Shown: positions 3,767-60,580 of the stretch, in pieces
Layout: each line of letters begins with the position of its first letter
Position numbering within the stretch: position 1 is the first letter of the stretch
IMG/VR virus record: IMGVR_UViG_3300033463_000081
Location: 1-64,000 of that record
DNA: 64,000 nt
Source: a virus
Lineage: Duplodnaviria; Caudoviricetes
Reading direction: 5' to 3' (one strand)
Position numbers and translations under genes: made by a program
The notes under the pieces: generated by a model
Database searches by the model: none
Seen by the model: only the letters and a program-made list of their open reading frames with translations
Told to the model about the DNA's origin: nothing

Positions 3767-4020
3767 TTCTCCCACACTTTCTCCCACACTTGTTTGACGA
3801 AAACTGACTATTTTGGGCTTTTGAGCATGGTATTTTAACGGAAGAATACTGCTATATTCATTTAAGAAACCATTGATAAATCAAGGTTTTCTGATTGTTA
3901 TTCATAATTATCGTATAATTATGGCAGTTAATTACTTGTCAGCATATGTAACCCCTATACCCATTGAAATTACTGGGTATTTTGTCCTTTCGTTAGTGTT
4001 CTCCCACAGATTCTCCCACA
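3767..4020. other. attP site: four arm-type repeats around a palindromic core
   Basis: TTCTCCCACA at 3767, 3779, 3999, 4011 (two pairs, 12-bp period); CATAATTA-TCGTA-TAATTATG at 3903-3923; AT-rich; adjoins the integrase 3' end. Confidence 0.75.
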
Positions 4021-5204
4021 GGGAGTATGTACTGTGTGGCACGGATAGCTTCGGGTTCACCGCTGTCGGTGTATATATTGGACGTGGTGGAGATATCCTC
4101 GTGACCCATGAGGTACTTGGTCACTTCCACCGGGACGCCCAACCTCTGCATGTCCGTGCAGAATGTATGTCGAAGCGTATACAGGCTAATATCGGCTGAC
4201 AGCCTATGTCCGTTCAAAGGTTTGGATGGGTCAGCTGGGTCTGGGTATAACGGTGTACCGTCATACTTTACGTCCTTTTCGTCCGGGATATGGTTGTGTA
4301 TACGGATGGCTCCCATCTCTATGTCCATCAGCCGTGCGAACGAGCGCCAGTATGTATGTATGTTTTGGTCTGTCATCATTCCACCGCCGTATTTGGGAAA
4401 GAGAAAGTCATCCGGCTGTTTCTGTTCAACAAAATCACGCAACCGTGATATAAGGTCGATGTCATTGATGACGGTGTGGCGGATACCGGCGTTCGTCTTG
4501 GGCGTGGAAATCAGATTCGTGCCGGACTCTACGGCATCGTCTATCTTGACTATGGCTTTATCAAGGTCAAGCTGGCGCACACGGAGGGCGCGGACTTCGT
4601 TAGGGCGCATACCCGTGGCAAGCATGAAACGGAACAGATACCCACTCCGATGTTTCTCCGCCACCTTGAAGAATATCTCTTTCTCGTATGGCGTGAATGA
4701 GCGTCTGCTCCCTTTCTCCACGGCGGGCAGGTCGAGGTTCACAGCCGGATTGAACATGATGAGCCGCGAGACGTTTGCCTGCGTGAACATCATCTTGAGT
4801 ATCATCCGTATCTTTTGGGCGTGGGCGTAGGACATCCCCCTCTGAGCGTTGAGGATGCCACGGAGGTCTGTGTCTGTGACAGACGCAAGGCGCATCTCCC
4901 CTATCGCCGGAACGATGTGCAGGCGTGTCACGATATCGTAAGTTCGATAGGAGTTCTCCGACATAGTACCGGGCAACTTAGGCGCACCGGGCTTGCGGAC
5001 TCTCGGCTTGATATAATCTTTCAGCCATTCGTCCACCCAAGTCGATACTTTCATATCGGTTCCGATGTATCCGCTCTTGGCCGCGTCTATCTTCCGTGCC
5101 AGTCTGCGCTCCGCCTCGCGTTGCGTCTTCCCCGTTGCCTCGTAACGCTTGCCATTATAGGTTTCCGTTGCTCTCGGATAGTTGTACTTTTTCTTCTTAG
5201 CCAA
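3993..5204 (-). CDS. int: Tyrosine integrase (lysogeny)
   Basis: 403 aa; arm-binding N-terminus; GMRPNE, TPKT, LRHTF, LMGH, SNIY catalytic motifs. Confidence 0.95.
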   Translation of the reverse strand: MAKKKKYNYPRATETYNGKRYEATGKTQREAERRLARKIDAAKSGYIGTDMKVSTWVDEWLKDYIKPRVRKPGAPKLPGTMSENSYRTYDIVTRLHIVPAIGEMRLASVTDTDLRGILNAQRGMSYAHAQKIRMILKMMFTQANVSRLIMFNPAVNLDLPAVEKGSRRSFTPYEKEIFFKVAEKHRSGYLFRFMLATGMRPNEVRALRVRQLDLDKAIVKIDDAVESGTNLISTPKTNAGIRHTVINDIDLISRLRDFVEQKQPDDFLFPKYGGGMMTDQNIHTYWRSFARLMDIEMGAIRIHNHIPDEKDVKYDGTPLYPDPADPSKPLNGHRLSADISLYTLRHTFCTDMQRLGVPVEVTKYLMGHEDISTTSNIYTDSGEPEAIRATQYILPVGESVGEH

Positions 5205-8903: not shown

Positions 8904-9547
8904 GCCTCGTATACGAACACCACGACACCAGAGATGACTGGCTGTTTGGGCGAAACAATTTCATAGGTGCGTCCGAAGCCGGAGCCATCATGGGCGTTGG
9001 CTTTATATCAAGGATTGACTTATGGAAGGAGAAGACCGGGCGCTCCGAACGAAAGTCATTGGAGAAGAACGAGGCGGTTCAGTACGGAAAGCGGGCTGAA
9101 AACCCCCTTAGAAATCTGTTCTTGGCAAAGCACCCGGAATTTGCCAGACAGTATCGCCCATATGACTATCTCTATCAGGAAGAACGTCCGTGGCTGAGAG
9201 CCACATTGGACGGAGAGATATATCTGTACGGCAAGAGCGATGACCGTGGCATTTTGGAAATCAAAACCGCCACTTGTTCATCACGAGCCGACTGGCAGAA
9301 ATGGAACAAACAAGTGCCTAACGGGTATTACTGCCAAATCCTGCATCAGATGCTTGCGTCCGGCTTTCGGTGGGCATATCTGTTCGCCGAACTGACGAAC
9401 GGAGTGACGGGTGTCGCGGAACTGCGCCAGTACTACTTTGCTGCCGACGAATGCCGAGAGGATATGGAGTATCTGCTCGGCGAGGAGGAAACGTTTTGGG
9501 AGTGCGTACAGACGGACAGAATGCCGTCCGTGCCACTGAGGATATAG
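8900..9547 (+). CDS. YqaJ-like viral recombinase exonuclease
   Basis: WL..R..FIGASEAG.IMG; ATLDG; LEIKT; YYCQILHQM. Confidence 0.9.
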   Translation: MSLVYEHHDTRDDWLFGRNNFIGASEAGAIMGVGFISRIDLWKEKTGRSERKSLEKNEAVQYGKRAENPLRNLFLAKHPEFARQYRPYDYLYQEERPWLRATLDGEIYLYGKSDDRGILEIKTATCSSRADWQKWNKQVPNGYYCQILHQMLASGFRWAYLFAELTNGVTGVAELRQYYFAADECREDMEYLLGEEETFWECVQTDRMPSVPLRI

Positions 9548-9549
9548 TT

Positions 9550-9804
9550 ATGAAACAATACGAAGAACACGATGGAATCAGAACCTACTTTGCGACAGAC
9601 CGGGATATCTTCAATATGACTCACGGCTTCGACCTTAACGAGGTCTGCCGTTACCACAGGGAAAAGGGCGGAGTTGTCTGCGACCAAAAAAAGCGCACCG
9701 ATGCCATGTGCTCTGGGTGTGGGTGGAATCCGAGAGTGTCGCGGATGAGGATACGCAAATTCCTTGAGGGGAAGGAGAAGAATGAGCAGTCAGATGTCAT
9801 TTGA
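9550..9804 (+). CDS. Hypothetical protein
   Basis: ATG 9550 within the 9370 frame, coupled to neighbours. Confidence 0.5.
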   Translation: MKQYEEHDGIRTYFATDRDIFNMTHGFDLNEVCRYHREKGGVVCDQKKRTDAMCSGCGWNPRVSRMRIRKFLEGKEKNEQSDVI

Positions 9805-10645
9805 GGTCACCACAGACCTCACGCCGGTTATCAGTACGGACATAACAGCCAACTTTGACGCTGTGAAGGAATGGCTGGCCGAAAACCTCGCCCCATACGC
9901 CAACATGGTGGTTACGGAAGAAGGTCTCTCTGACGCCAAGAAGACCAGGGCGGACATCCGCAAGGTTGGTGAATCCATCGACAGTCAGCGCAAGGCTGTC
10001 AAGAAAGAGTGGATGCGCCCCTACGAGGCGTTTGAGTCAAAGGTCAAGGAACTGACGGGCATCGTCAACGAGGCTGTCACAAATATCGACAGCCAAATCA
10101 AAGAGATGGAGAACGCCGAGAAAGAAGCCAAGCGTCAGCGGCTTTGGGAACTGTTCACATCCTCTTCCGAAGACATCCGTGAGTATGTCGAATTCGAGGA
10201 TGTCTTCGACAAGAAGTGGCTGAACGCCACGTTCCCGGAGACAGACGCCGCCAACTCCATCGTCCGGCAACTGGAAGATATCCGTGATGGGCTTAACGCT
10301 ATCCGTGGTATGGAAAGTCCCTATGAGGCTTCCATGCTGTCCGAGTATGCCAAGAGTCACAACCTCGCCAAAGCTATGGCGGAGGGGAAGCGTCTTGAGG
10401 CTATTCAGAAAGTCGAGGAAGAGCGTAAGGCTCGTGAAGTGGTCGTAATGAAGTGGGAGCCTCCTGCGGACGATGGCGAAGAAACTGAGGTTGATGTTCC
10501 GAAGAAACCTTTCAAGTGGCCGTCCGCCGTTCCTAAGACCTACGGCTATCAGTTTACGATGCCATCCATGACGATGGAGCAGATGAAAGCGCTCAAAGCC
10601 TGCCTTGACGAAAACGGCATTGAGTATAAAGCGAAAAAACTCTAA
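9782..10645 (+). CDS. DUF1351-like coiled-coil protein
   Basis: ITANFDAVKEWL...DAKKTRADIRK...KKEWMRPYEAFESKVKEL; lies between exonuclease and recombinase. Confidence 0.8.
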   Translation: MSSQMSFEVTTDLTPVISTDITANFDAVKEWLAENLAPYANMVVTEEGLSDAKKTRADIRKVGESIDSQRKAVKKEWMRPYEAFESKVKELTGIVNEAVTNIDSQIKEMENAEKEAKRQRLWELFTSSSEDIREYVEFEDVFDKKWLNATFPETDAANSIVRQLEDIRDGLNAIRGMESPYEASMLSEYAKSHNLAKAMAEGKRLEAIQKVEEERKAREVVVMKWEPPADDGEETEVDVPKKPFKWPSAVPKTYGYQFTMPSMTMEQMKALKACLDENGIEYKAKKL

Positions 10646-10657
10646 GGAGGTATAGAT

Positions 10658-11422
10658 ATGAGAGCAGCCGCAGCGGTGAAACCCACCGCCAGTAAACAAT
10701 CCCTTGCGCCGGTGCAGAAGGATGCGTTCGTTGACAAGCCCATCAAGTACATGGTTGGCGGAAAGAGCGTAGAACTGAGCGTAGCCCTTACGCAGAAGTA
10801 TTTCTGCCCTGACGCCACCCCCGCCGAAGCGTTCGTGTTCAACGCATGGTGTCAGCACAACGGCCTCGATCCGTGGAAGAAGGAAGCGTATCTCGTCAAG
10901 TACGGGAACAATCCCCCTCAGATGCTCACGGCCAAGGATGCGTTCACGAAACGCGCCGAGGCGAACCCCAACTATCGGGGGAGTCAGGCAGGAGTCGTTG
11001 TCCGCAAAGTGGACGGCACTCTTGAGAACCGGCTCGGTGAGCTTGTCCTTGAGGATGAGGAAATCGTAGGCGGATGGGCCGACGTTTATGTCAAAGACTA
11101 CATTAAGCCCATTAGCTCCGTTGTCGGATTCAGGGAGCGTTGCCAGTACAAGAGTGACGGAAAGCCGATGGCAAAGTGGGCTACGGCTCCCGCACTGATG
11201 ATTCGTAAGTGCGCTCTCGTAGCCGCCATGCGCGAGGCATTCCCCAACGAAGTCGGGGGCATGTATATCCCGGACGAACTGGAAGCCGGAGCAACCATCA
11301 ATGACGAGGATGCTGCGCCTACAGCTTATCAGGATGTGGCATACACGGATGTGGCGACCGGCGAGGTCTTCACGCCCGACGAGGACGATGACGAGCCGTC
11401 CATCTTCGACACAGAGGGATGA
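10658..11422 (+). CDS. RecT/Bet-like single-strand annealing recombinase
   Basis: F..WCQHNGLDPWKKEAYLVKYG; MIRKCALVAAMREAFP. Confidence 0.9.
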   Translation: MRAAAAVKPTASKQSLAPVQKDAFVDKPIKYMVGGKSVELSVALTQKYFCPDATPAEAFVFNAWCQHNGLDPWKKEAYLVKYGNNPPQMLTAKDAFTKRAEANPNYRGSQAGVVVRKVDGTLENRLGELVLEDEEIVGGWADVYVKDYIKPISSVVGFRERCQYKSDGKPMAKWATAPALMIRKCALVAAMREAFPNEVGGMYIPDELEAGATINDEDAAPTAYQDVAYTDVATGEVFTPDEDDDEPSIFDTEG

Positions 11423-25942: not shown

Positions 25943-26016
25943 ACGGACTTGGTGTAAAGGTAGCACACGGGACTTTGACTCCTGCGGTGGTGGTTCGACC
26001 CCACCAGTCTGTGCCA
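25943..26016 (+). tRNA. tRNA-Gln(TTG)
   Basis: ACGGACT/AGTCTGT acceptor, CT-TTG-AC loop, GGTGG-TTCGACC-CCACC, encoded CCA. Confidence 0.9.
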
Positions 26017-42343: not shown

Positions 42344-44386
42344 ATGTCTACTTTTGGCAACCCCATTGTAGCAAGCCCCAACCTGCTGCCGTCTATGGCT
42401 GATGTGTTCTCTACATCGACGGCGTACAGTGCGGGTCAATATGTATATTACGGCGGTAAACTGTACCAGTTCACGGCCAATCACGCAGCTGGTGCGTGGG
42501 TAGGAACGGACGCCACGGCGGTCAAGCTGGCGAACGACGTAAGTAACTTAAAGAGCGCAATTAGTGACCTTGACACCGCAGTAGACAACCTTGAGGCCAC
42601 TAAAGCAGACAAAGGCTCCGATGACCCCGAAGCGGCGGTCGGCACGGCTGAACAGGTCATGTCCGATGCGGGAGTGACCGACAAGGTGCCGTATCTGTTC
42701 CGCAAGTCGGCGGGTGACGGTGCGAACCGTGAGCGGGATTCCATTGTCGGCGGCACGGTGGCGTGGAATCAGCTTCTGCAAAAAAGCACCTTCTCTTATA
42801 CGGGCGGTGATTGCACAACGGACGCAGACGGGGTTGCGACCTTTACTGCTTCTGCGAGTGGGCAACAGGCATACAGAAGTGTTACATGTTACGCAACCCA
42901 TGTGATACTTGTATCCATTACCTTCAAAACAACTACAGCATCGAGCTACGTTAGGATGAGGGCGTTCGCCAACGATGTTGCTAGTATCGCAACGACATCT
43001 TGGCAGACTGGTTATTCCATGTATAAACCACCCAATAGCGGGAACCAAACTGTTGGCGTGATTGACCGCCGAGAAAGCGGGTGGGATGCAATAACCATCG
43101 ACCCGCCAATGGTGTTTGACCTCACCCAAATGTTTGGCTCCACCATAGCCGACTACATCTACACGCTTGAATCGACCGAAGCGGGTGCGGGAGTGGCCCT
43201 GTTCCGTTCCCTGTTCCCCGCCCCGTACTACGCCTACAACACAGGAGAACTGAAGTCCGTCACGGGTCTGTCGGCTCATGTCATGCGTGGGTTTAACCAG
43301 TGGGATGGTGAGTATGAAAAGGCCACAATCAACTGGACAACATACATCTTCACTCCCAACGCATCGGGGAGATGGTCGTCGAAGAATTATATCCCTGTAA
43401 TTCCCGACACCGCATATTATATCACCCATACGTCCAATAATGTTGTCTGCGGCTATACCGACAATCAAGGCAACGGTGGCAGGGCGTTGACCGTAAGCTC
43501 CCATCTTTTCACCGTTCCGTCCGATGTGCATTTCATCAAATTCGGCATCAATGAAACCGCACAGCCGACAGACGTTTGCATCAACATCTCCAACGCCGCT
43601 TTGAACGGCACATACGAACCCTATGACGGTCACAGCTACCCGCTTGACTCCGACCTTACTCTCCGTGGTATCCCCAAACTGGACGCAAGCAATAACCTGT
43701 ACTATGACGGCGACACCTATGCCGCTGACGGTACGGTGACAAGGAAGTATGCCATTGTTGATTTGGGGAGTTTGAGTTGGTCAACCACTTCTTCAGGGAA
43801 TCATTATGCGGGAATAGATAACCCACAAAAACTTGGAAATGCCGTGATTGCACACGCTGTATGCGGGAGGTATGTTGCGTCATCTCCAAGCGGATATGGG
43901 TCTATTGACAAGGCGTTTGCGATAGGAATGAATGGAACCAACAGCGTGTACATTCATGACAGCACATATGATAATGTCGATGCCGCCACATTCAAAACCG
44001 CAATGAGTGGTGTGTACCTTGTCTACGAACTCGCAACCCCGACAACCGAATCCGCTGACCCGTACAACCCCATTCAGATTGTAGACCCCAACGGAACGGA
44101 AGAATACGTTTCCACAGGCATCGTTCCTGTCGGGCACGATACGTTCTACCCCGAAAATGTGGCGGCGAAGATTGCGGGTCTACCTTGGAACTTTGCGAAT
44201 CTGATTGCCTACACCGAATCGGGATTCACTGCAAGCAAAGCCTATTCCGCAAACGATTTCCTTATCATCAACAATCAGCTTTACAAGGCCACAACGTCCA
44301 TCGCAAACGGTGCGACTATCACCGTAGGAACGAACGTCACGGCAACAACCATCGGTGAGCAAATCACCGCAATCCTTAATTCTTAA
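42344..44386 (+). CDS. Tail fibre/receptor-binding protein
   Basis: 680 aa; CBM5/12-like repeats at both ends (FSTSTAYSAGQYVYYGGKLY; FTASKAYSANDFLIINNQLY). Confidence 0.7.
   Translation: MSTFGNPIVASPNLLPSMADVFSTSTAYSAGQYVYYGGKLYQFTANHAAGAWVGTDATAVKLANDVSNLKSAISDLDTAVDNLEATKADKGSDDPEAAVGTAEQVMSDAGVTDKVPYLFRKSAGDGANRERDSIVGGTVAWNQLLQKSTFSYTGGDCTTDADGVATFTASASGQQAYRSVTCYATHVILVSITFKTTTASSYVRMRAFANDVASIATTSWQTGYSMYKPPNSGNQTVGVIDRRESGWDAITIDPPMVFDLTQMFGSTIADYIYTLESTEAGAGVALFRSLFPAPYYAYNTGELKSVTGLSAHVMRGFNQWDGEYEKATINWTTYIFTPNASGRWSSKNYIPVIPDTAYYITHTSNNVVCGYTDNQGNGGRALTVSSHLFTVPSDVHFIKFGINETAQPTDVCINISNAALNGTYEPYDGHSYPLDSDLTLRGIPKLDASNNLYYDGDTYAADGTVTRKYAIVDLGSLSWSTTSSGNHYAGIDNPQKLGNAVIAHAVCGRYVASSPSGYGSIDKAFAIGMNGTNSVYIHDSTYDNVDAATFKTAMSGVYLVYELATPTTESADPYNPIQIVDPNGTEEYVSTGIVPVGHDTFYPENVAAKIAGLPWNFANLIAYTESGFTASKAYSANDFLIINNQLYKATTSIANGATITVGTNVTATTIGEQITAILNS
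42541..42569 (+). repeat. Putative recombination site A (in the tail-fibre ORF)
   Basis: AAGTAAC-TTAAAGAGCGCA-ATTAGTGACC. Confidence 0.55.
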
Positions 44387-44405
44387 TTTTACGGAGGGTT
44401 AAACA

Positions 44406-44660
44406 ATGAAACTTGCCATTATCGAGTGCGTAAACGGGAACTATGTTGTGCGGGCCGAGGGCATCGCTTCTGTCGAAGCCGCCAAGACGCAGTACCACGG
44501 GAGAGCGCAGGCTCTTTGGAACGCTCCCGATGTGCTGACCGCCTACATCGCCATTGTCGATGAGCAGTTGGATGTGGTCGAGGGCATGAAAGAGTACATC
44601 CATCATGACCCGACTCCTGCTCCCGAACCCGAAGAGGAAGAGCCTGTCGAGGGAGAGTAA
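44406..44660 (+). CDS. Small acidic protein after the tail fibre
   Basis: GGAGG RBS. Confidence 0.65.
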   Translation: MKLAIIECVNGNYVVRAEGIASVEAAKTQYHGRAQALWNAPDVLTAYIAIVDEQLDVVEGMKEYIHHDPTPAPEPEEEEPVEGE

Positions 44661-44848
44661 TGGACTACACCGAACTGGTGCAGGAATTGCGGGGCAACAA
44701 TTCCCCGCTTACCGACAAGGCCGCTGACGCAATCGAAGAACTGATTGCTGACCTTGAACGTGCGGAAGACTATGCCGAAGCATGGGAAGGGCTTGCCAAC
44801 GATTGCAAGGAAAAGTTTGTGGCGTTTGTCGAGAAGATGAAGCGGTAA
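44660..44848 (+). CDS. Small coiled-coil protein (AADAIEEL family)
   Basis: TAATG coupling. Confidence 0.6.
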   Translation: MDYTELVQELRGNNSPLTDKAADAIEELIADLERAEDYAEAWEGLANDCKEKFVAFVEKMKR

Positions 44849-44903
44849 CGATTTGGCATGATAGTAAAACAGATTTCATGCTATCTATACGGAATCACGC
44901 ATA

Positions 44904-44941
44904 AACACTTTCGGAATTTCTTTATAGAAAAAGGGAAGTGT
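44904..44941. terminator. Hairpin
   Basis: AACACTT...TTTCT-TTAT-AGAAA...AAGTGTT. Confidence 0.45.
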
Positions 44942-44986
44942 TGCGGGCTTGGATTCGCAGTATGTGACGGGTGCAGATTCAAGCGC

Positions 44987-45015
44987 AAGTAACGATTCGG
45001 CCCATATTAGTGACC
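44987..45015 (+). repeat. Putative recombination site B
   Basis: AAGTAAC-GATTCGGCCCAT-ATTAGTGACC. Confidence 0.55.
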
Positions 45016-45033
45016 ATCCATACGCATACATAC

Positions 45034-45150
45034 ACACTTGTTTAATAGCGGTCTGACAAGTGTTTCCCCACGATTCGGGGAGTGACCGAGTGCTGACCGC
45101 TAAGTTGAACTCGTCATTGGGCGTGACGAGGGTAATATAAATAAAGCCCA
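45034..45150. ncRNA. Candidate pseudoknotted ncRNA or ssDNA structure
   Basis: Three stems plus an 8-bp loop pairing TAGCGGTC/GACCGCTA. Confidence 0.5.
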
Positions 45151-45151
45151 T

Positions 45152-45188
45152 AAGAAGAGAGGGACTACCCTCAATAGTCCCTCTTCTT
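45152..45188. terminator. Bidirectional hairpin at the RHH1 3' end
   Basis: AAGAAGAGAGGGACTA...TAGTCCCTCTTCTT. Confidence 0.7.
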
Positions 45189-45368
45189 CAGAAACTCATC
45201 AACAGCCCTCTGAATCACCCATGACCTTGGACGATCCTCTTCCTTGCAGAACTTGTCCAGTCGGGTGAGGATACTGGGCGGCATCGTGATATTGAGCCGC
45301 AGGAAAAGACCCTCATCTTCCTTGCTGACCTCAATGCCACGGAGCGACCTACCTCCGTTGATTCCCAT
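45171..45368 (-). CDS. Ribbon-helix-helix (CopG/Arc-like) protein 1
   Basis: RLNITMPPSILTRLDKFCKEEDRPRSWVIQRAVDEFL; AAGGAGG RBS. Confidence 0.85.
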   Translation of the reverse strand: MGINGGRSLRGIEVSKEDEGLFLRLNITMPPSILTRLDKFCKEEDRPRSWVIQRAVDEFLKKRDY

Positions 45369-45426
45369 ACAGACACCTCCTTATTGATAGATTAACATCC
45401 ATGTCAATGGAGATGTATGCGGACTC

Positions 45427-45453
45427 AACTTTACGAGGCCCAAATTAATAACC
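45427..45453 (+). repeat. Putative recombination site C
   Basis: AACTTTACGAGGCCCAAATTAATAACC. Confidence 0.6.
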
Positions 45454-45477
45454 ACTGACTTACACTGGTGTACACCG

Positions 45478-45804
45478 ATGGAGAAGAGCAACATGGCAGA
45501 GTACGTCAACCGTGAAGAAATTCTTGCAGAGTATGACCGACAGCATCAAGGGCCTGCGGGCGGGGCAAGAAAGATAATGGCAGAATGGCCCGCCGCTGAC
45601 GTTGCTCCTGTTCATCACGGAAAGTGGATACCCGCAAAAACGAGATTTGCCTCATTGGGTGGTGACCCAGTATGGCAGTGTTCAGAGTGCGGTAAAGGCA
45701 TCCACACTTACGGAATCGAACACGCATTATACAACGCCAACATCGCAGACGGACAATGGAAATACTGCCCCAATTGCGGCGCAAAGATGGACGGTGAGAG
45801 GTGA
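45478..45804 (+). CDS. Zn-ribbon phage accessory protein
   Basis: MAEYVNRE...ADVAPVHHGKWI...CSECG...YCPNCGAKMD (likely start 45493). Confidence 0.75.
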   Translation: MEKSNMAEYVNREEILAEYDRQHQGPAGGARKIMAEWPAADVAPVHHGKWIPAKTRFASLGGDPVWQCSECGKGIHTYGIEHALYNANIADGQWKYCPNCGAKMDGER

Positions 45805-45841
45805 TGCTCAGTGTACCCGGACTCGTTCCCCGTATGTGAGT

Positions 45842-45878
45842 AGAAGAGAGGGGCTACCCCTCAGTAACCCCTCTTCTT
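45842..45878. terminator. Bidirectional hairpin at the RHH2 3' end
   Basis: AGAAGAGAGGGGCTA...TAACCCCTCTTCT. Confidence 0.65.
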
Positions 45879-46046
45879 CAACCATTCATCAAGCGCACGT
45901 TGGATAACCCACGAGCGGTTGCGATCTTCCTCTTTCATGAATCTCTCCAATCGCTCACGGATGGAATTAGGCAAAGAGATATGCAAATCGGTAAACCCCG
46001 ACATATCTTCGATGCCCCTCAGATTGCGGCCTCCATTGATGCCCAT
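45861..46046 (-). CDS. Ribbon-helix-helix protein 2
   Basis: DLHISLPNSIRERLERFMKEEDRNRSWVIQRALDEWL; paralogue of RHH1. Confidence 0.85.
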   Translation of the reverse strand: MGINGGRNLRGIEDMSGFTDLHISLPNSIRERLERFMKEEDRNRSWVIQRALDEWLKKRGY

Positions 46047-46092
46047 CGGCAAACACCTCCTACCACTATTGTACGGCGGCTGTCAATGAGTG

Positions 46093-46130
46093 CCAGTGAT
46101 AGCCAGTGAAATCCAGTGATAGCCAGTATT
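46093..46130 (+). repeat. 10-bp tandem repeats (operator-like)
   Basis: CCAGTGATAG CCAGTGAAAT CCAGTGATAG CCAGTATT. Confidence 0.8.
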
Positions 46131-46131
46131 C

Positions 46132-46158
46132 AACTTTGAGAGGCCCAAATAAATTACT
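46132..46158 (+). repeat. Putative recombination site D
   Basis: AACTTTGAGAGGCCCAAATAAATTACT. Confidence 0.6.
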
Positions 46159-46705: not shown

Positions 46706-47692
46706 TCACGCATACTTACGATAGGCGTTGCGCACGTTCTCCTTGCTTTGGTAGACGTATTCCATTGTGGTGTCCAGCTTGTCATGGCCGAGTACCGCCG
46801 CTACGTCCTGAATGGGCATACCGTTGTTGATGAGGTTCGTGGCCAACGTCCGGCGGAACTTATGCGGATGGACGCGCTCTACCCCGGACTCCGCGCCTAG
46901 CTGTCTGAGCATCCTTCGGACTCCACCGGGTTGTATACGCGCATCGGAACGGTTGATGAACAGCGCCTCGCAATCGTCTTTTCTCTTATTCAGATAGCGT
47001 TCCAGCATCATGGCGGTCACGCCGTCGAAGAACACCACGCGCTCCTTGTTGCCTTTGCCTCGGACTTTGCATTCAAAGTTCACAAGGTCGAGGTCGGAGC
47101 GGTTGAGGGAACACGCCTCGGAGATGCGGCATCCAGTAGCCAAAAGAAAGAAGATGATAGCCTTGTCTCTCGGATTACGGCATTTCTCTTTCAGCTTTTC
47201 TATTTCCGTATCGGAATACGGGGTCTTCACCTTCTTGGCGCATTTGATGGGTGCGAGATTAGCGCACGGATTATCTTTGAGCAGGCCCTCTTTCTGACAC
47301 CATCCGAAGAAAGAACAGTATACGCTCCTGTTCCCTTCCAATGTGGAGTCTGCAATCCCGCGCTCTTTCTCCTTGCCGAGATAAGAGCGGATGTGGAACA
47401 CGGTGATTTCCCTTACGGGGACATTGAGAGCGGAGAACAATCTTCTTAGCGTGTAGACAGACCTCGTGATGCTCTTTTCCGAGCATCCCTGCAATCTCTT
47501 CGTATCGCAGTATATGTCGAGCATTTCCTGCGCATCATTTGAGCCTGACTCGTTGGGGTGTTCCTCAACGGCATATGAGGACAGGTTCGCGGAGAGGATA
47601 TCAAGTACGGAGTTGATATCTTTCTCCAATAAAAAAGTCTTTAATTGTCTCTCTGTTTCTTTCAGCAATCGCTGTTTGGCAGTTACAGACAT
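46706..47692 (-). CDS. XerD-like tyrosine recombinase with N-terminal SAM-like domain
   Basis: TGCRISE, GKGNKER, HPHKFRR, LGH, MEY. Confidence 0.95.
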   Translation of the reverse strand: MSVTAKQRLLKETERQLKTFLLEKDINSVLDILSANLSSYAVEEHPNESGSNDAQEMLDIYCDTKRLQGCSEKSITRSVYTLRRLFSALNVPVREITVFHIRSYLGKEKERGIADSTLEGNRSVYCSFFGWCQKEGLLKDNPCANLAPIKCAKKVKTPYSDTEIEKLKEKCRNPRDKAIIFFLLATGCRISEACSLNRSDLDLVNFECKVRGKGNKERVVFFDGVTAMMLERYLNKRKDDCEALFINRSDARIQPGGVRRMLRQLGAESGVERVHPHKFRRTLATNLINNGMPIQDVAAVLGHDKLDTTMEYVYQSKENVRNAYRKYA

Positions 47693-47737: not shown

Positions 47738-48223
47738 ATGGCATCTTATGAACTCGGACAAGTCGCAATCGTGAATAAAGGTGCATGGAGCAGTGCCACA
47801 AGCTATGTTCTGCTCAATACGGTGACGCACAACGGTGGCTCGTTCATGTGTATCTCCGCCAACACCAACAAGGAACCGGGCGTGGCTTCGGGATGGGCTA
47901 CTTACTGGGTAAACATGGCGAAGGGCATTAAGACCGTGAGCATCGTGGCTGATTCCACATCGACCGCTCATGCGGTGTTCACCATGTCGGACGGCATGAC
48001 CATTACGGGAACCACGTTCACCACATCTCCCGTGGCTGCTGGCTCCATCACGGATACGGAGATAACAAGCAACGGCATCTCACGCATAGCCAACGGAGCG
48101 GTGACGGCGGCGAAGCTCGGCTCGGACATCCTGCCTGCCAACGTGGGCATCAAGCATGGAAACCACAATCCTCCGACCACATCGGACATCTCTGACGGAC
48201 AGATATATCTGTACCACGCATAA
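47738..48223 (+). CDS. Minor tail/fibre-associated protein
   Basis: KGAWSSATSY..LNTVTHNGGSF (CBM-like); ANGAVTAAKL fibre repeat. Confidence 0.6.
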   Translation: MASYELGQVAIVNKGAWSSATSYVLLNTVTHNGGSFMCISANTNKEPGVASGWATYWVNMAKGIKTVSIVADSTSTAHAVFTMSDGMTITGTTFTTSPVAAGSITDTEITSNGISRIANGAVTAAKLGSDILPANVGIKHGNHNPPTTSDISDGQIYLYHA

Positions 48224-59405: not shown

Positions 59406-59615
59406 TTACGCCGCCCTCCTGTTCCACTTGGCAATCGCTCCCGCCGGGTCATGGCTCCAGTTGATGTAGCATCCACAGGGAACGCACCCGACCCATCCGT
59501 GGCGGAACATTCCCCGGAACTCTCTGACCTCAGACTTTCCGCCACAGTGCGGGCAGTTTTCTACATGTTCTCCGACGAGAACGAACGATGTGTCCTGTTT
59601 CTTTTTCTTGGACAT
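59406..59615 (-). CDS. Lar-like restriction-alleviation Zn-ribbon protein
   Basis: CPHCGG...V.C..CG...AIAKWNRR; start overlaps the recombinase stop. Confidence 0.55.
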   Translation of the reverse strand: MSKKKKQDTSFVLVGEHVENCPHCGGKSEVREFRGMFRHGWVGCVPCGCYINWSHDPAGAIAKWNRRAA

Positions 59616-60580
59616 CACTGTGCCTCCTTTCTGTTGAACACGTTGGCCACCGCCATTGCCGGAGCGTTCACACTGAAGCGGGCGGCGTATATTTTCGTTG
59701 TCGCAACACTGCTGTGGCCCATCGTCTCGGAGATAAGCTCCATCGGAACATCGTTCTCCAAGAGGACGGATGCGTAGCAGTGACGTGCTGCGTGGGATCT
59801 GCAGGATTTCTCCTCGCCCAGGACAGCCTTGGTGTAGTGCTTGATTCGCTCGGAAAGTTCTATTCTGGACATCGGATTCCATCCGCCCTGGGCGTTCACC
59901 GATCCGAACAGCCAATCATCATCGGAAACCCAAGAGGGACGAAGACCGCTCTCAAGGTACTCACGCACGGCGTTCTGAGATGCCTCGGAGAAGACCACGG
60001 CGCGGGGCTTGTCTCCCTTGGTGTCCTGCGGATACGCCACACCGTTCTCCCAGTCCAGGTCGCACAGCCGGAGCGAACGAATCTCGCTGTTCCGCAACCC
60101 GGACTGGAGAAGCATGGTGACCTCGGCTTTCTCACGCAGCCACTTGGAAGACCGTCTTCCGAACTTGGGCTTGTCGCAGGTGATCAGGGCTTCGGCGTCC
60201 TCGTCCGTGAGGACGTGTTCATAGGGTTTGTTGCGCTCCACGTTCAGCTTCTTCTTGGGAGGCATCAGGGTGTCCAGGAAGAACGGCTTGTCCACGATGC
60301 CACACGCTACGGCGAAGTTCGACAGGCAACGGATGTGCGTGAGGTAGAGAGCCATAGTGGTTATCTTCACATCGGTGTCAAGCTTGAACCGCATCACGGC
60401 TTCCACGCCGATGTCTTCCGCACCGCTGCGCTCCATGCTCTCTCGGAGCATTCGGTACGTCCGGGCGTAACTGCTGATGCTGTTCTCGGACAGCTCGTTA
60501 CGCTTCATGTTGTCCATGTACAGGCTCACAGCCCTGTCATACTTTTCAAACATCTTCTCGATGCCTCCTTTCTTCGTCAC
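59615..60580 (-). CDS. Third tyrosine recombinase
   Basis: SGLRNSE, TKGDK, HAARH, MGH, KIY. Confidence 0.9.
   Translation of the reverse strand: MTKKGGIEKMFEKYDRAVSLYMDNMKRNELSENSISSYARTYRMLRESMERSGAEDIGVEAVMRFKLDTDVKITTMALYLTHIRCLSNFAVACGIVDKPFFLDTLMPPKKKLNVERNKPYEHVLTDEDAEALITCDKPKFGRRSSKWLREKAEVTMLLQSGLRNSEIRSLRLCDLDWENGVAYPQDTKGDKPRAVVFSEASQNAVREYLESGLRPSWVSDDDWLFGSVNAQGGWNPMSRIELSERIKHYTKAVLGEEKSCRSHAARHCYASVLLENDVPMELISETMGHSSVATTKIYAARFSVNAPAMAVANVFNRKEAQ

Follow-up and report, generated by a model that had tools for sequence, protein, structure and literature searches.

A split repeat on the mosaic junction of a phage tail-fibre gene

The window analysed here comprises bases 1-64000 of the 78,374-bp IMG/VR virus record IMGVR_UViG_3300033463_000081, which is rated complete. 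Its tail region runs from a tape measure protein (1371 aa) through a Gp10_C baseplate protein, two baseplate-like proteins (542 and 435 aa) and proteins of 184 and 119 aa to a putative tail fibre. This is followed by two small genes, g84 and g62, a non-coding gap, a minus-strand ribbon-helix-helix (RHH) gene termed RHH1, g108 (zinc ribbon), a second such minus-strand gene, RHH2, and g165, and then by a tyrosine recombinase (minus strand, 46706-47692), g161, g330 (Listeria-Bacteroides repeats) and a GH25 + CW_7 endolysin, the type of which points to a Gram-positive host. Two short sites, A near the 5′ end of the fibre gene and B in the non-coding gap, share 17 identical bases, and a sequence-only reading had taken them as the possible borders of a swappable receptor-binding cassette. 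The features on which this question turns are as follows.

42344-44386, plus strand: putative tail fibre / receptor-binding protein gene, an open reading frame (ORF) of 680 aa that lies between the tape measure, Gp10_C and baseplate-like genes on one side and the GH25 + CW_7 endolysin on the other
42344-42562, plus strand: constant N-terminal module of the fibre, aa 1-73 (219 nt), common to sister phages
42563-44386, plus strand: exchangeable distal fibre module, aa 74-680, in place of which L025, L026, L029/L030, L032/L033 and L003/L004 have unrelated sequence
42541-42569, plus strand: site A (AAGTAAC-N12-ATTAGTGACC), which straddles the mosaic junction 42562/42563 at fibre codons 66-76
44987-45015, plus strand: site B, intergenic, at the left end of a conserved non-coding element

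Sister fibres were found by searching with the first 80 residues of the fibre, and they combine a recognisable N-terminal module with unrelated distal parts. Over aa 1-73 the identity is 69/73 for P0122, 83% for P0123, 74% for P0124, 71% for P0125 and 51% for L003; the first four of these fibres are 509, 625 (with a diversity-generating retroelement), 672 (with a GDSL esterase domain) and 974 aa long, respectively, and P0122 diverges from the fibre of the window directly after SNLKSAI. The sister contigs encode the same upstream baseplate genes (435/543 aa), and L003/L004 have a tape measure that is 99.7% identical, together with a 1896-aa fibre that is similar at aa 1-73 only. At the DNA level, identity between the window and L025 is about 97% from a point 5′ of the start codon up to ...AAGTAACTTAAAGAGCGCAATT (42562), and from 42563 onwards the two are unrelated; for L026, L029, L032 and L003 the similarity ends at this column as well. 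In a six-way alignment all six fibre types, those of the window and of five sister-phage lineages, diverge at this one column, straight after ...AAGAGCGCAATT. The fibre is modular at "NLKSAI", with the junction inside site A, and the drop in identity at NLKSA behind a short N-terminal anchor, which the sequence-only reading had anticipated, is thereby located to the nucleotide.

The right edge of the variable block varies with the phage that is compared. In the comparison with L025, a mosaic of blocks with 100% and 60% identity covers the 3′ end of the fibre and g84; against G001 the edge lies at the start of g165, and against L029 at g161; in no comparison does it lie at B. The proposed swappable cassette is real insofar as the fibre is modular at NLKSAI; the A/B pair as its device is not supported, B being a cassette border in none of the comparisons. 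The two small genes between the fibre and site B are the following.

44406-44660, plus strand: g84, a small gene 3′ of the fibre, ORF of 84 aa
44660-44848, plus strand: g62, the second small gene 3′ of the fibre, ORF of 62 aa

Homologues of g84 lie behind other fibres, namely in L025 (79 aa, with a patchy DNA identity of 60-98%) and in L027, a virus contig described below (94 aa, 67% aa identity); g62 is present in neither L025 nor L027.

The junction lies at a domain boundary of the predicted fibre structure. An AlphaFold model (50 homologues, pLDDT 86) has a small beta domain at 20-60, a helix at 66-87, a disordered linker at 83-101, an all-beta multi-jelly-roll body at 105-615 and then a small C-terminal domain. 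A CBM_5_12 domain is found at aa 22-53, small CBM5/12-like domains stand at both ends of the protein (aa 22-53 and about 625-665), and the modelled body resembles CBM4/6/22-type sugar-binding jelly rolls. Both the position in the tail module and the CBM-like folds fit a receptor-binding role; the fibre has no PHROG match. Homologues of the fibre body number 2499 at 40-50% identity and stand behind many different N-termini, and those that also carry a CBM-like domain are colinear across site A, an observation that speaks against the A/B pair as the device of exchange. A short helix motif, (D/N)(L/V)KS.I, is common in these homologues and occurs also in the unrelated N-terminal module of L027.

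As to the repeat itself, AAGTAAC-N12-ATTAGTGACC matches the window exactly twice, at 42541-42569 (A) and 44987-45015 (B), both on the plus strand, and no third site was found in the window on either strand with up to 3 mismatches; the two sites with 17 identical bases are thus as the sequence-only reading had described them. Site A runs from the third base of V66 through S-N-L-K-S-A-I-S-D to the first base of L76 of the 680-aa ORF, in agreement with its earlier placement near codon 66 at SNLKSAISD. Its first 22 nt belong to the constant module and its last 7 nt (AGTGACC) to the distal module of this phage; AGTGACC is found in no sister phage, and the left arm AAGTAAC is common to L025 only. 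The interval from A to B encloses fibre aa 76-680 and the 84- and 62-aa ORFs, so the earlier figure of about 610 fibre residues and two small genes is correct. Translated in the register of A, B reads S-N-D-S-A-H-I-S-D and continues ...ISDHPYAYIHTCLIAV-stop, again as had been read. The differing 12-bp middles, which had also been pointed out, have 2/12 bases in common. Nothing matches beyond the 17 bases, and MAFFT leaves A and B unpaired.

How far such a pair exceeds chance depends on how the question is put. For the exact A/B pattern, a post-hoc test gives 0.06 expected matches. A fairer test counts any exact 10-mer and 7-mer at equal spacing, with a gap of at most 20, as direct repeats in Markov shuffles of the window, and the outcome is 4.4 direct pairs per 64 kb, or 0.47 if the two copies must lie within 3 kb. 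Since at least one pair within 3 kb is present in 33% of the shuffles, the A/B repeat alone is not beyond chance. A scan of IMG/VR for the pattern returned 3 unrelated AT-rich matches, about the chance number. The related pattern AGTRAC-N15-AGTRAC, i.e., two AGTRAC boxes 21 bp apart, occurs in the window at A and B only, and 13/100 shuffles have at least 2 matches. L025 has an exact 13-nt direct repeat around its central fibre body (L025:8244-8256 and 9447-9459), both copies of which encode an A-S-G-A motif; this is a further case of short repeats around fibre modules that arise from coding similarity.

Site B lies within the 322-nt gap between the end of the 62-aa ORF (44848) and the minus-strand RHH gene (45171-45368), a region with several features of its own.

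About 44989-45170, plus strand: conserved structured non-coding element beside RHH1, marked by identity with L027, by its RNA fold and by its position upstream of the RHH gene
44999-45014, plus strand: core of B, GGCCCATATTAGTGAC, one of three copies of a 16-nt motif
45171-45368, minus strand: RHH1, ribbon-helix-helix (CopG/Arc-like) gene, PF01402 (E 1e-6), PHROG Arc-like repressor
45437-45452, plus strand: second copy of the motif GGCCCA-AT-A-T-AC, upstream of g108; the same as repeat D9
46142-46157, plus strand: third copy of the motif GGCCCA-AT-A-T-AC, upstream of g165, partly kept in L025 upstream of its g165

An exact-match scan with the sequence to the right of B found one other virus contig, L027, and a metagenome scan for the B element found only the source contig of L027. 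In L027, a 630-aa fibre with a different N-terminal module is followed by a g84 homologue and, 3 nt past the stop of the latter, by GGGTTAC-GTTTAGGCCCAT-ATTAGTGACT; the next 115 nt, up to the end of the contig, are 100% identical to window 45016-45129. The neighbouring genes of L027 have 39-67% protein identity to those of the window. Within B, L027 conserves 10/12 bases of the centre, 9/10 of the right arm and 4/7 of the left arm. Because the B region of L027 runs into the same 100%-identical stretch, B is assigned to a conserved non-coding element, of which it forms the left end. No A-like partner site is found in the L027 fibre, and site B is independent of site A. The element has an RNA fold z-score of -3.45, and at 45106-45156 it matches the Rfam 6A RNA (RF02925) with 38.4 bits (E 5e-6), below the gathering threshold (cut-off 41.2); this near-match lies 90 nt downstream of B and does not include B itself. 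A hairpin at 45158-45184, at the end of the element, is the predicted terminator of the minus-strand RHH1.

The reading of B in the register of A, together with a TCAAGC upstream of both sites, could suggest that B is what remains, in decayed form, of an older fibre junction, such as the "SN....ISD" helix of a second or an earlier fibre gene left behind after a past exchange. We hold this to be extremely unlikely. On neither side does the similarity extend past the 17 bases, decay should have been even rather than leaving two perfect blocks around a centre with 2/12 identities, and in L027 the B region comes directly after the stop of the g84 homologue and runs into the 100%-conserved non-coding element. 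In none of the fetched loci is the B region continuous with coding sequence of a fibre N-terminal module.

The three copies of the 16-nt motif in the genome are all on the plus strand and within 1.2 kb. Each stands just upstream of a plus-strand unit (the structured non-coding element, g108 and g165, respectively), and two of them follow a divergent RHH gene; from this arrangement, the motif is probably a promoter or an RHH operator. The GGCCCA motif was not found in 21 IMG/VR loci with relatives of the RHH protein (58-69% aa). A second explanation of the repeat starts from this motif, namely that A and B share a protein-binding motif, either the two AGTRAC boxes or the ATTAGTGAC end of the GGCCCA motif. 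In that case B would act as promoter or operator for the RHH island, and A, as a cryptic copy inside the fibre gene, would modulate transcription there. The place of the B core among three copies that each precede a plus-strand unit agrees with this, as does the restriction of AGTRAC-N15-AGTRAC to A and B. However, A lacks GGCCCA, the best-conserved part of the motif, and has no motif match within 2 mismatches, and the AGTRAC pattern is, given the shuffles above, not rare by chance. In addition, the codons K-S-A-I-S-D account for all bases of A, and its right arm is absent from all sisters. We regard a shared binding motif as quite unlikely.

Next to these units, the window has an intact recombinase gene 1.7 kb from B.

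46706-47692, minus strand: Xer-like arm-less tyrosine recombinase, 328 aa, PF00589 (130 bits)

The best matches of this protein are of the XerA/XerC/XerD type, the best in NCBIfam being XerA-type (204 bits against a cut-off of 220), and it reaches 53.7 bits with the integron integrase model TIGR02249, the cut-off of which is 265. It is one of three tyrosine-recombinase genes of the phage genome, all on the minus strand (3993-5204, 46706-47692 and 59615-60580). The gene at 59.6 kb is conserved in the relatives G001 and G003, and the one at 46.7 kb is optional among the sisters. Site B was also weighed as a possible attP and set aside, with three such enzymes in the genome and no host junction for comparison. 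In L025 the recombinase has 98% aa identity and occupies the same slot between g165 and g161. In L026 it has been cleanly deleted, with the ribosome-binding site, the start codon and a 9-codon remnant left (L026:12497-12597). It is absent from G001, which has a 49-nt intergenic gap (L012:15671-15721), and from L029/L030. Since L025, L026, G001 and L029/L030 all differ in the distal module at the same junction, the recombinase does not track with fibre exchange. The 161-aa protein encoded after the recombinase (47738-48223) has a weak CBM_5_12 match at its N-terminus; the fibre N-terminal module and the g161 N-terminus were considered as a recombining pair and ruled out, there being no significant similarity.

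The pattern of presence and absence among sister phages bears directly on the idea that A and B are sites of this recombinase, by which the distal fibre and the two small genes would be excised or exchanged in an integron-like manner, or the fibre switched off. What speaks for it is that the pair is exact, directly oriented and placed around the distal fibre, that A lies exactly on the swap junction, and that an intact Xer-like enzyme is close by. The sister phages do not behave accordingly: L025, with the same recombinase, has neither B nor the right arm of A, the same junction has been used for swaps in L026, L029 and G001, which lack the recombinase, and L027 has B without A. In L025, neither an A/B-pattern site (up to 3 mismatches allowed) nor a B element is present, and its own junction sequence is not repeated; L026 also has no A/B-pattern site. 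The sequence-only reading had itself named the lack of B-like sites in relatives that carry the recombinase as a result that would count against it, and L025 is such a relative.

The form of the sites is no more favourable. Tyrosine recombinases such as lambda Int, Cre and XerCD need an identical crossover region between inverted arms, and the products of Campbell-type insertion share a core and differ in their arms. In A and B it is the arms (outer 7 + 10 nt) that are identical and the centres that differ, at 10/12 positions, which is the reverse of recombination sites and their products. The arms also lack dyad symmetry. The pair therefore does not have the identical core and differing arms of attL/attR. 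As to an integron, the enzyme is not an IntI-type integrase (it falls below the TIGR02249 cut-off), and no attC-like site ends every cassette, the right borders being different in every sister phage. The inverted crossover copies that flank alternative C-terminal segments in shufflons and DNA-inversion switches (Gin, Cin, Min, Rci, Rin) are likewise missing: no minus-strand copies of site A, site B or the junction sequence were found, nor any copy of the junction sequence elsewhere on either strand, and there are no strong inverted repeats in 40-50 kb. Because no other copy of the junction sequence and no silent or second fibre segments exist in the genome, a shufflon or cassette library is excluded. 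Two other assemblies with an identical fibre are unbroken through A, and neither the 91-aa product of A x B recombination nor an N-module stub was found among 5.8 billion protein clusters. The suggested ON/OFF switch of the fibre gains no support from these data. Taken together, we consider it very unlikely that A and B are recombinase sites.

Two features do agree with a modular fibre, i.e., an N-terminus that is conserved among phages with the same tail and baseplate backbone, and distal parts that are unrelated beyond a sharp junction. We therefore favour, with considerable though not full confidence, ordinary modular fibre evolution, in which A and B are a coincidental 17-base match of two unrelated features. 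Site A is the tail of the constant N-terminal module (aa 1-73), which comprises the small CBM5/12-like beta domain and the start of the helix. The distal, sugar-binding part of the fibre would be exchanged by ordinary recombination between diverged relatives, with one crossover in the conserved 5′ DNA, i.e., the upstream baseplate genes and the 219-nt N-terminal module, and the other in any conserved patch downstream, such as the fibre C-terminal domain, g84, g165 or g161. Selection may then keep only joins at the domain boundary after "NLKSAI", between the beta domain with the first helix turns and what follows, and all junctions would coincide at 42562/42563 because only joins at this structural boundary survive. 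Site B, in contrast, marks the left end of another, highly conserved element, which is non-coding and accompanies a small RHH regulator gene, and the recombinase is an optional neighbour gene, the presence of which does not follow the fibre cassettes. The mechanism, homologous recombination followed by selection, is one that we infer from these comparisons.

The KSAI-coding box recurs behind different N-terminal modules, which suggests that it may also serve as a short homology for joins, much as the conserved boxes of T-even adhesin genes do. One may go further and suppose that the "KSAI" box (AAGAGCGC-A/T-ATT) is a dedicated recombination hotspot across phage groups, paired with the GGCCCA copies (B, 45437, 46142) as partner sites and acted on by a phage enzyme, for instance the optional Xer-like recombinase. 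The box is indeed present in L027 behind an unrelated N-terminal module. If this were true, the hotspot would be a platform for programmed exchange of fibre modules rather than the outcome of selection on random recombinants. We think this very unlikely.

Several points weigh against coincidence between A and B. First, a random pair with one member exactly on the true junction is itself unlikely, at a rough estimate of 0.1-3%, according to how much freedom there was in the choice of patterns by the sequence-only reading. Second, the AGTRAC boxes, 21 bp apart in both arms, could be interpreted as a pair of half-sites on the same face of the helix. Third, the combination of a constant fibre N-terminus with a nearby arm-less Xer-like recombinase is reminiscent of the Rin shufflon. 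Fourth, the search for A x B products covered protein clusters and assemblies. Fifth, a 1038-bp ENA contig corresponds to window 45016-46053 and so ends beside B. The end of this contig at 45016 was considered as a mosaic border and rejected, since the homology with L027 already begins some 25 nt to the left of it; the C/T difference that L027 shows at 45015 explains the contig end equally well, because such a difference is enough to break the assembly graph. It is partly because a chance repeat on the true junction is improbable that we retain a small weight for recombinase sites and a slightly larger one for a shared binding motif.

The locus is a well-documented further example of a known phenomenon, that of mosaic phage fibres. 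Such mosaicism has reportedly been described for the fibre genes H of P2, S of Mu, S of P1 and stf of lambda, and for T-even phages, in which gp37/gp38 are said to be swapped at short conserved motifs. As in these systems, phages that are nearly identical elsewhere carry unrelated receptor-binding parts behind a constant N-terminal module, the join is placed at a domain boundary and marked by a short motif that is conserved in the peptide or the DNA, and the small gene downstream is exchanged in patches. Unlike them, the present phages are uncultured, about 78 kb in size and associated with a Gram-positive host, their N-terminal module is CBM5/12-like and only 73 aa long, and one sister has a diversity-generating retroelement (DGR).

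In Bifidobacterium prophages, the Rin shufflon comprises several variable C-terminal genes that lack a start and lie in both orientations, every one of them behind an 11-bp rix repeat (Mavrich et al. 2018, PMC6109161). The constant N-terminus of the receptor-binding protein and the arm-less XerD-like tyrosine recombinase near the fibre locus are features that the two loci have in common (PMC6109161), whereas here there is one distal module, without silent copies or an inverted junction copy, and the recombinase is optional among sisters. The likeness to integrons (IntI, attI, attC) is only superficial and consists in direct repeats around a gene-sized unit beside a tyrosine recombinase; the enzyme is not IntI, the sites lack the imperfect palindrome of the attC type, and the sister cassettes lack a site. 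A DGR on a phage fibre, of the BPP-1 Mtd type, is an alternative route to fibre diversification and is found in the sister phage L026, whereas in the window no reverse transcriptase and no pair of variable and template repeats (VR/TR) lies beside the fibre. The L026 element (L026:9755-11339) comprises a 112-nt VR/TR pair with 87% identity, one copy within the 3′ end of the fibre gene (9755-9866) and the other at 9996-10107, and behind the pair an RVT_1 reverse transcriptase (10281-11339).

The locus shows, as a clean case from nature, how one tail comes to be fitted with different receptor-binding parts in gut phages of Gram-positive hosts: six unrelated distal modules, one with an esterase and one DGR-diversified, all join a constant module of 73 aa at the same codon. 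The mapped boundary is useful for the annotation of fibres and for predicting where chimeras are tolerated. It also carries a caution, namely that a short split repeat on a true junction near a recombinase can be a coincidence, which only sister genomes settle.

BLASTN against GenBank phages with the 41.9-47.8 kb region gave no match, nor did a related-locus search of IMG/VR with the whole fibre, and the recombinase as query for related loci gave only a 26% relative. Contigs in ENA and Logan contain an identical fibre, g62 or RHH1, and these contigs were compared by gene maps and lengths.

Some minor observations concern the surroundings. In L025, an IS605 OrfB / TnpB-like gene (L025:13511-14272) is inserted between a Flg_new-repeat gene and the endolysin. 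In G001, the RHH units are replaced, 3′ of the 1896-aa fibre, by genes for a BspA-type leucine-rich-repeat protein and a family-2 glycosyltransferase (L012:16246-17238, minus strand, and L003:16089-17204). The phage genome has genes for tRNA-Gln(TTG), at window 25943-26016, and tRNA-Ile(GAT), at genome position 77194-77264 (L014:13194-13264). Finally, between RHH2 and g165, window 46084-46123 consists of 4 tandem 10-nt units (CCAGTGATAG-like), which may be an operator array.

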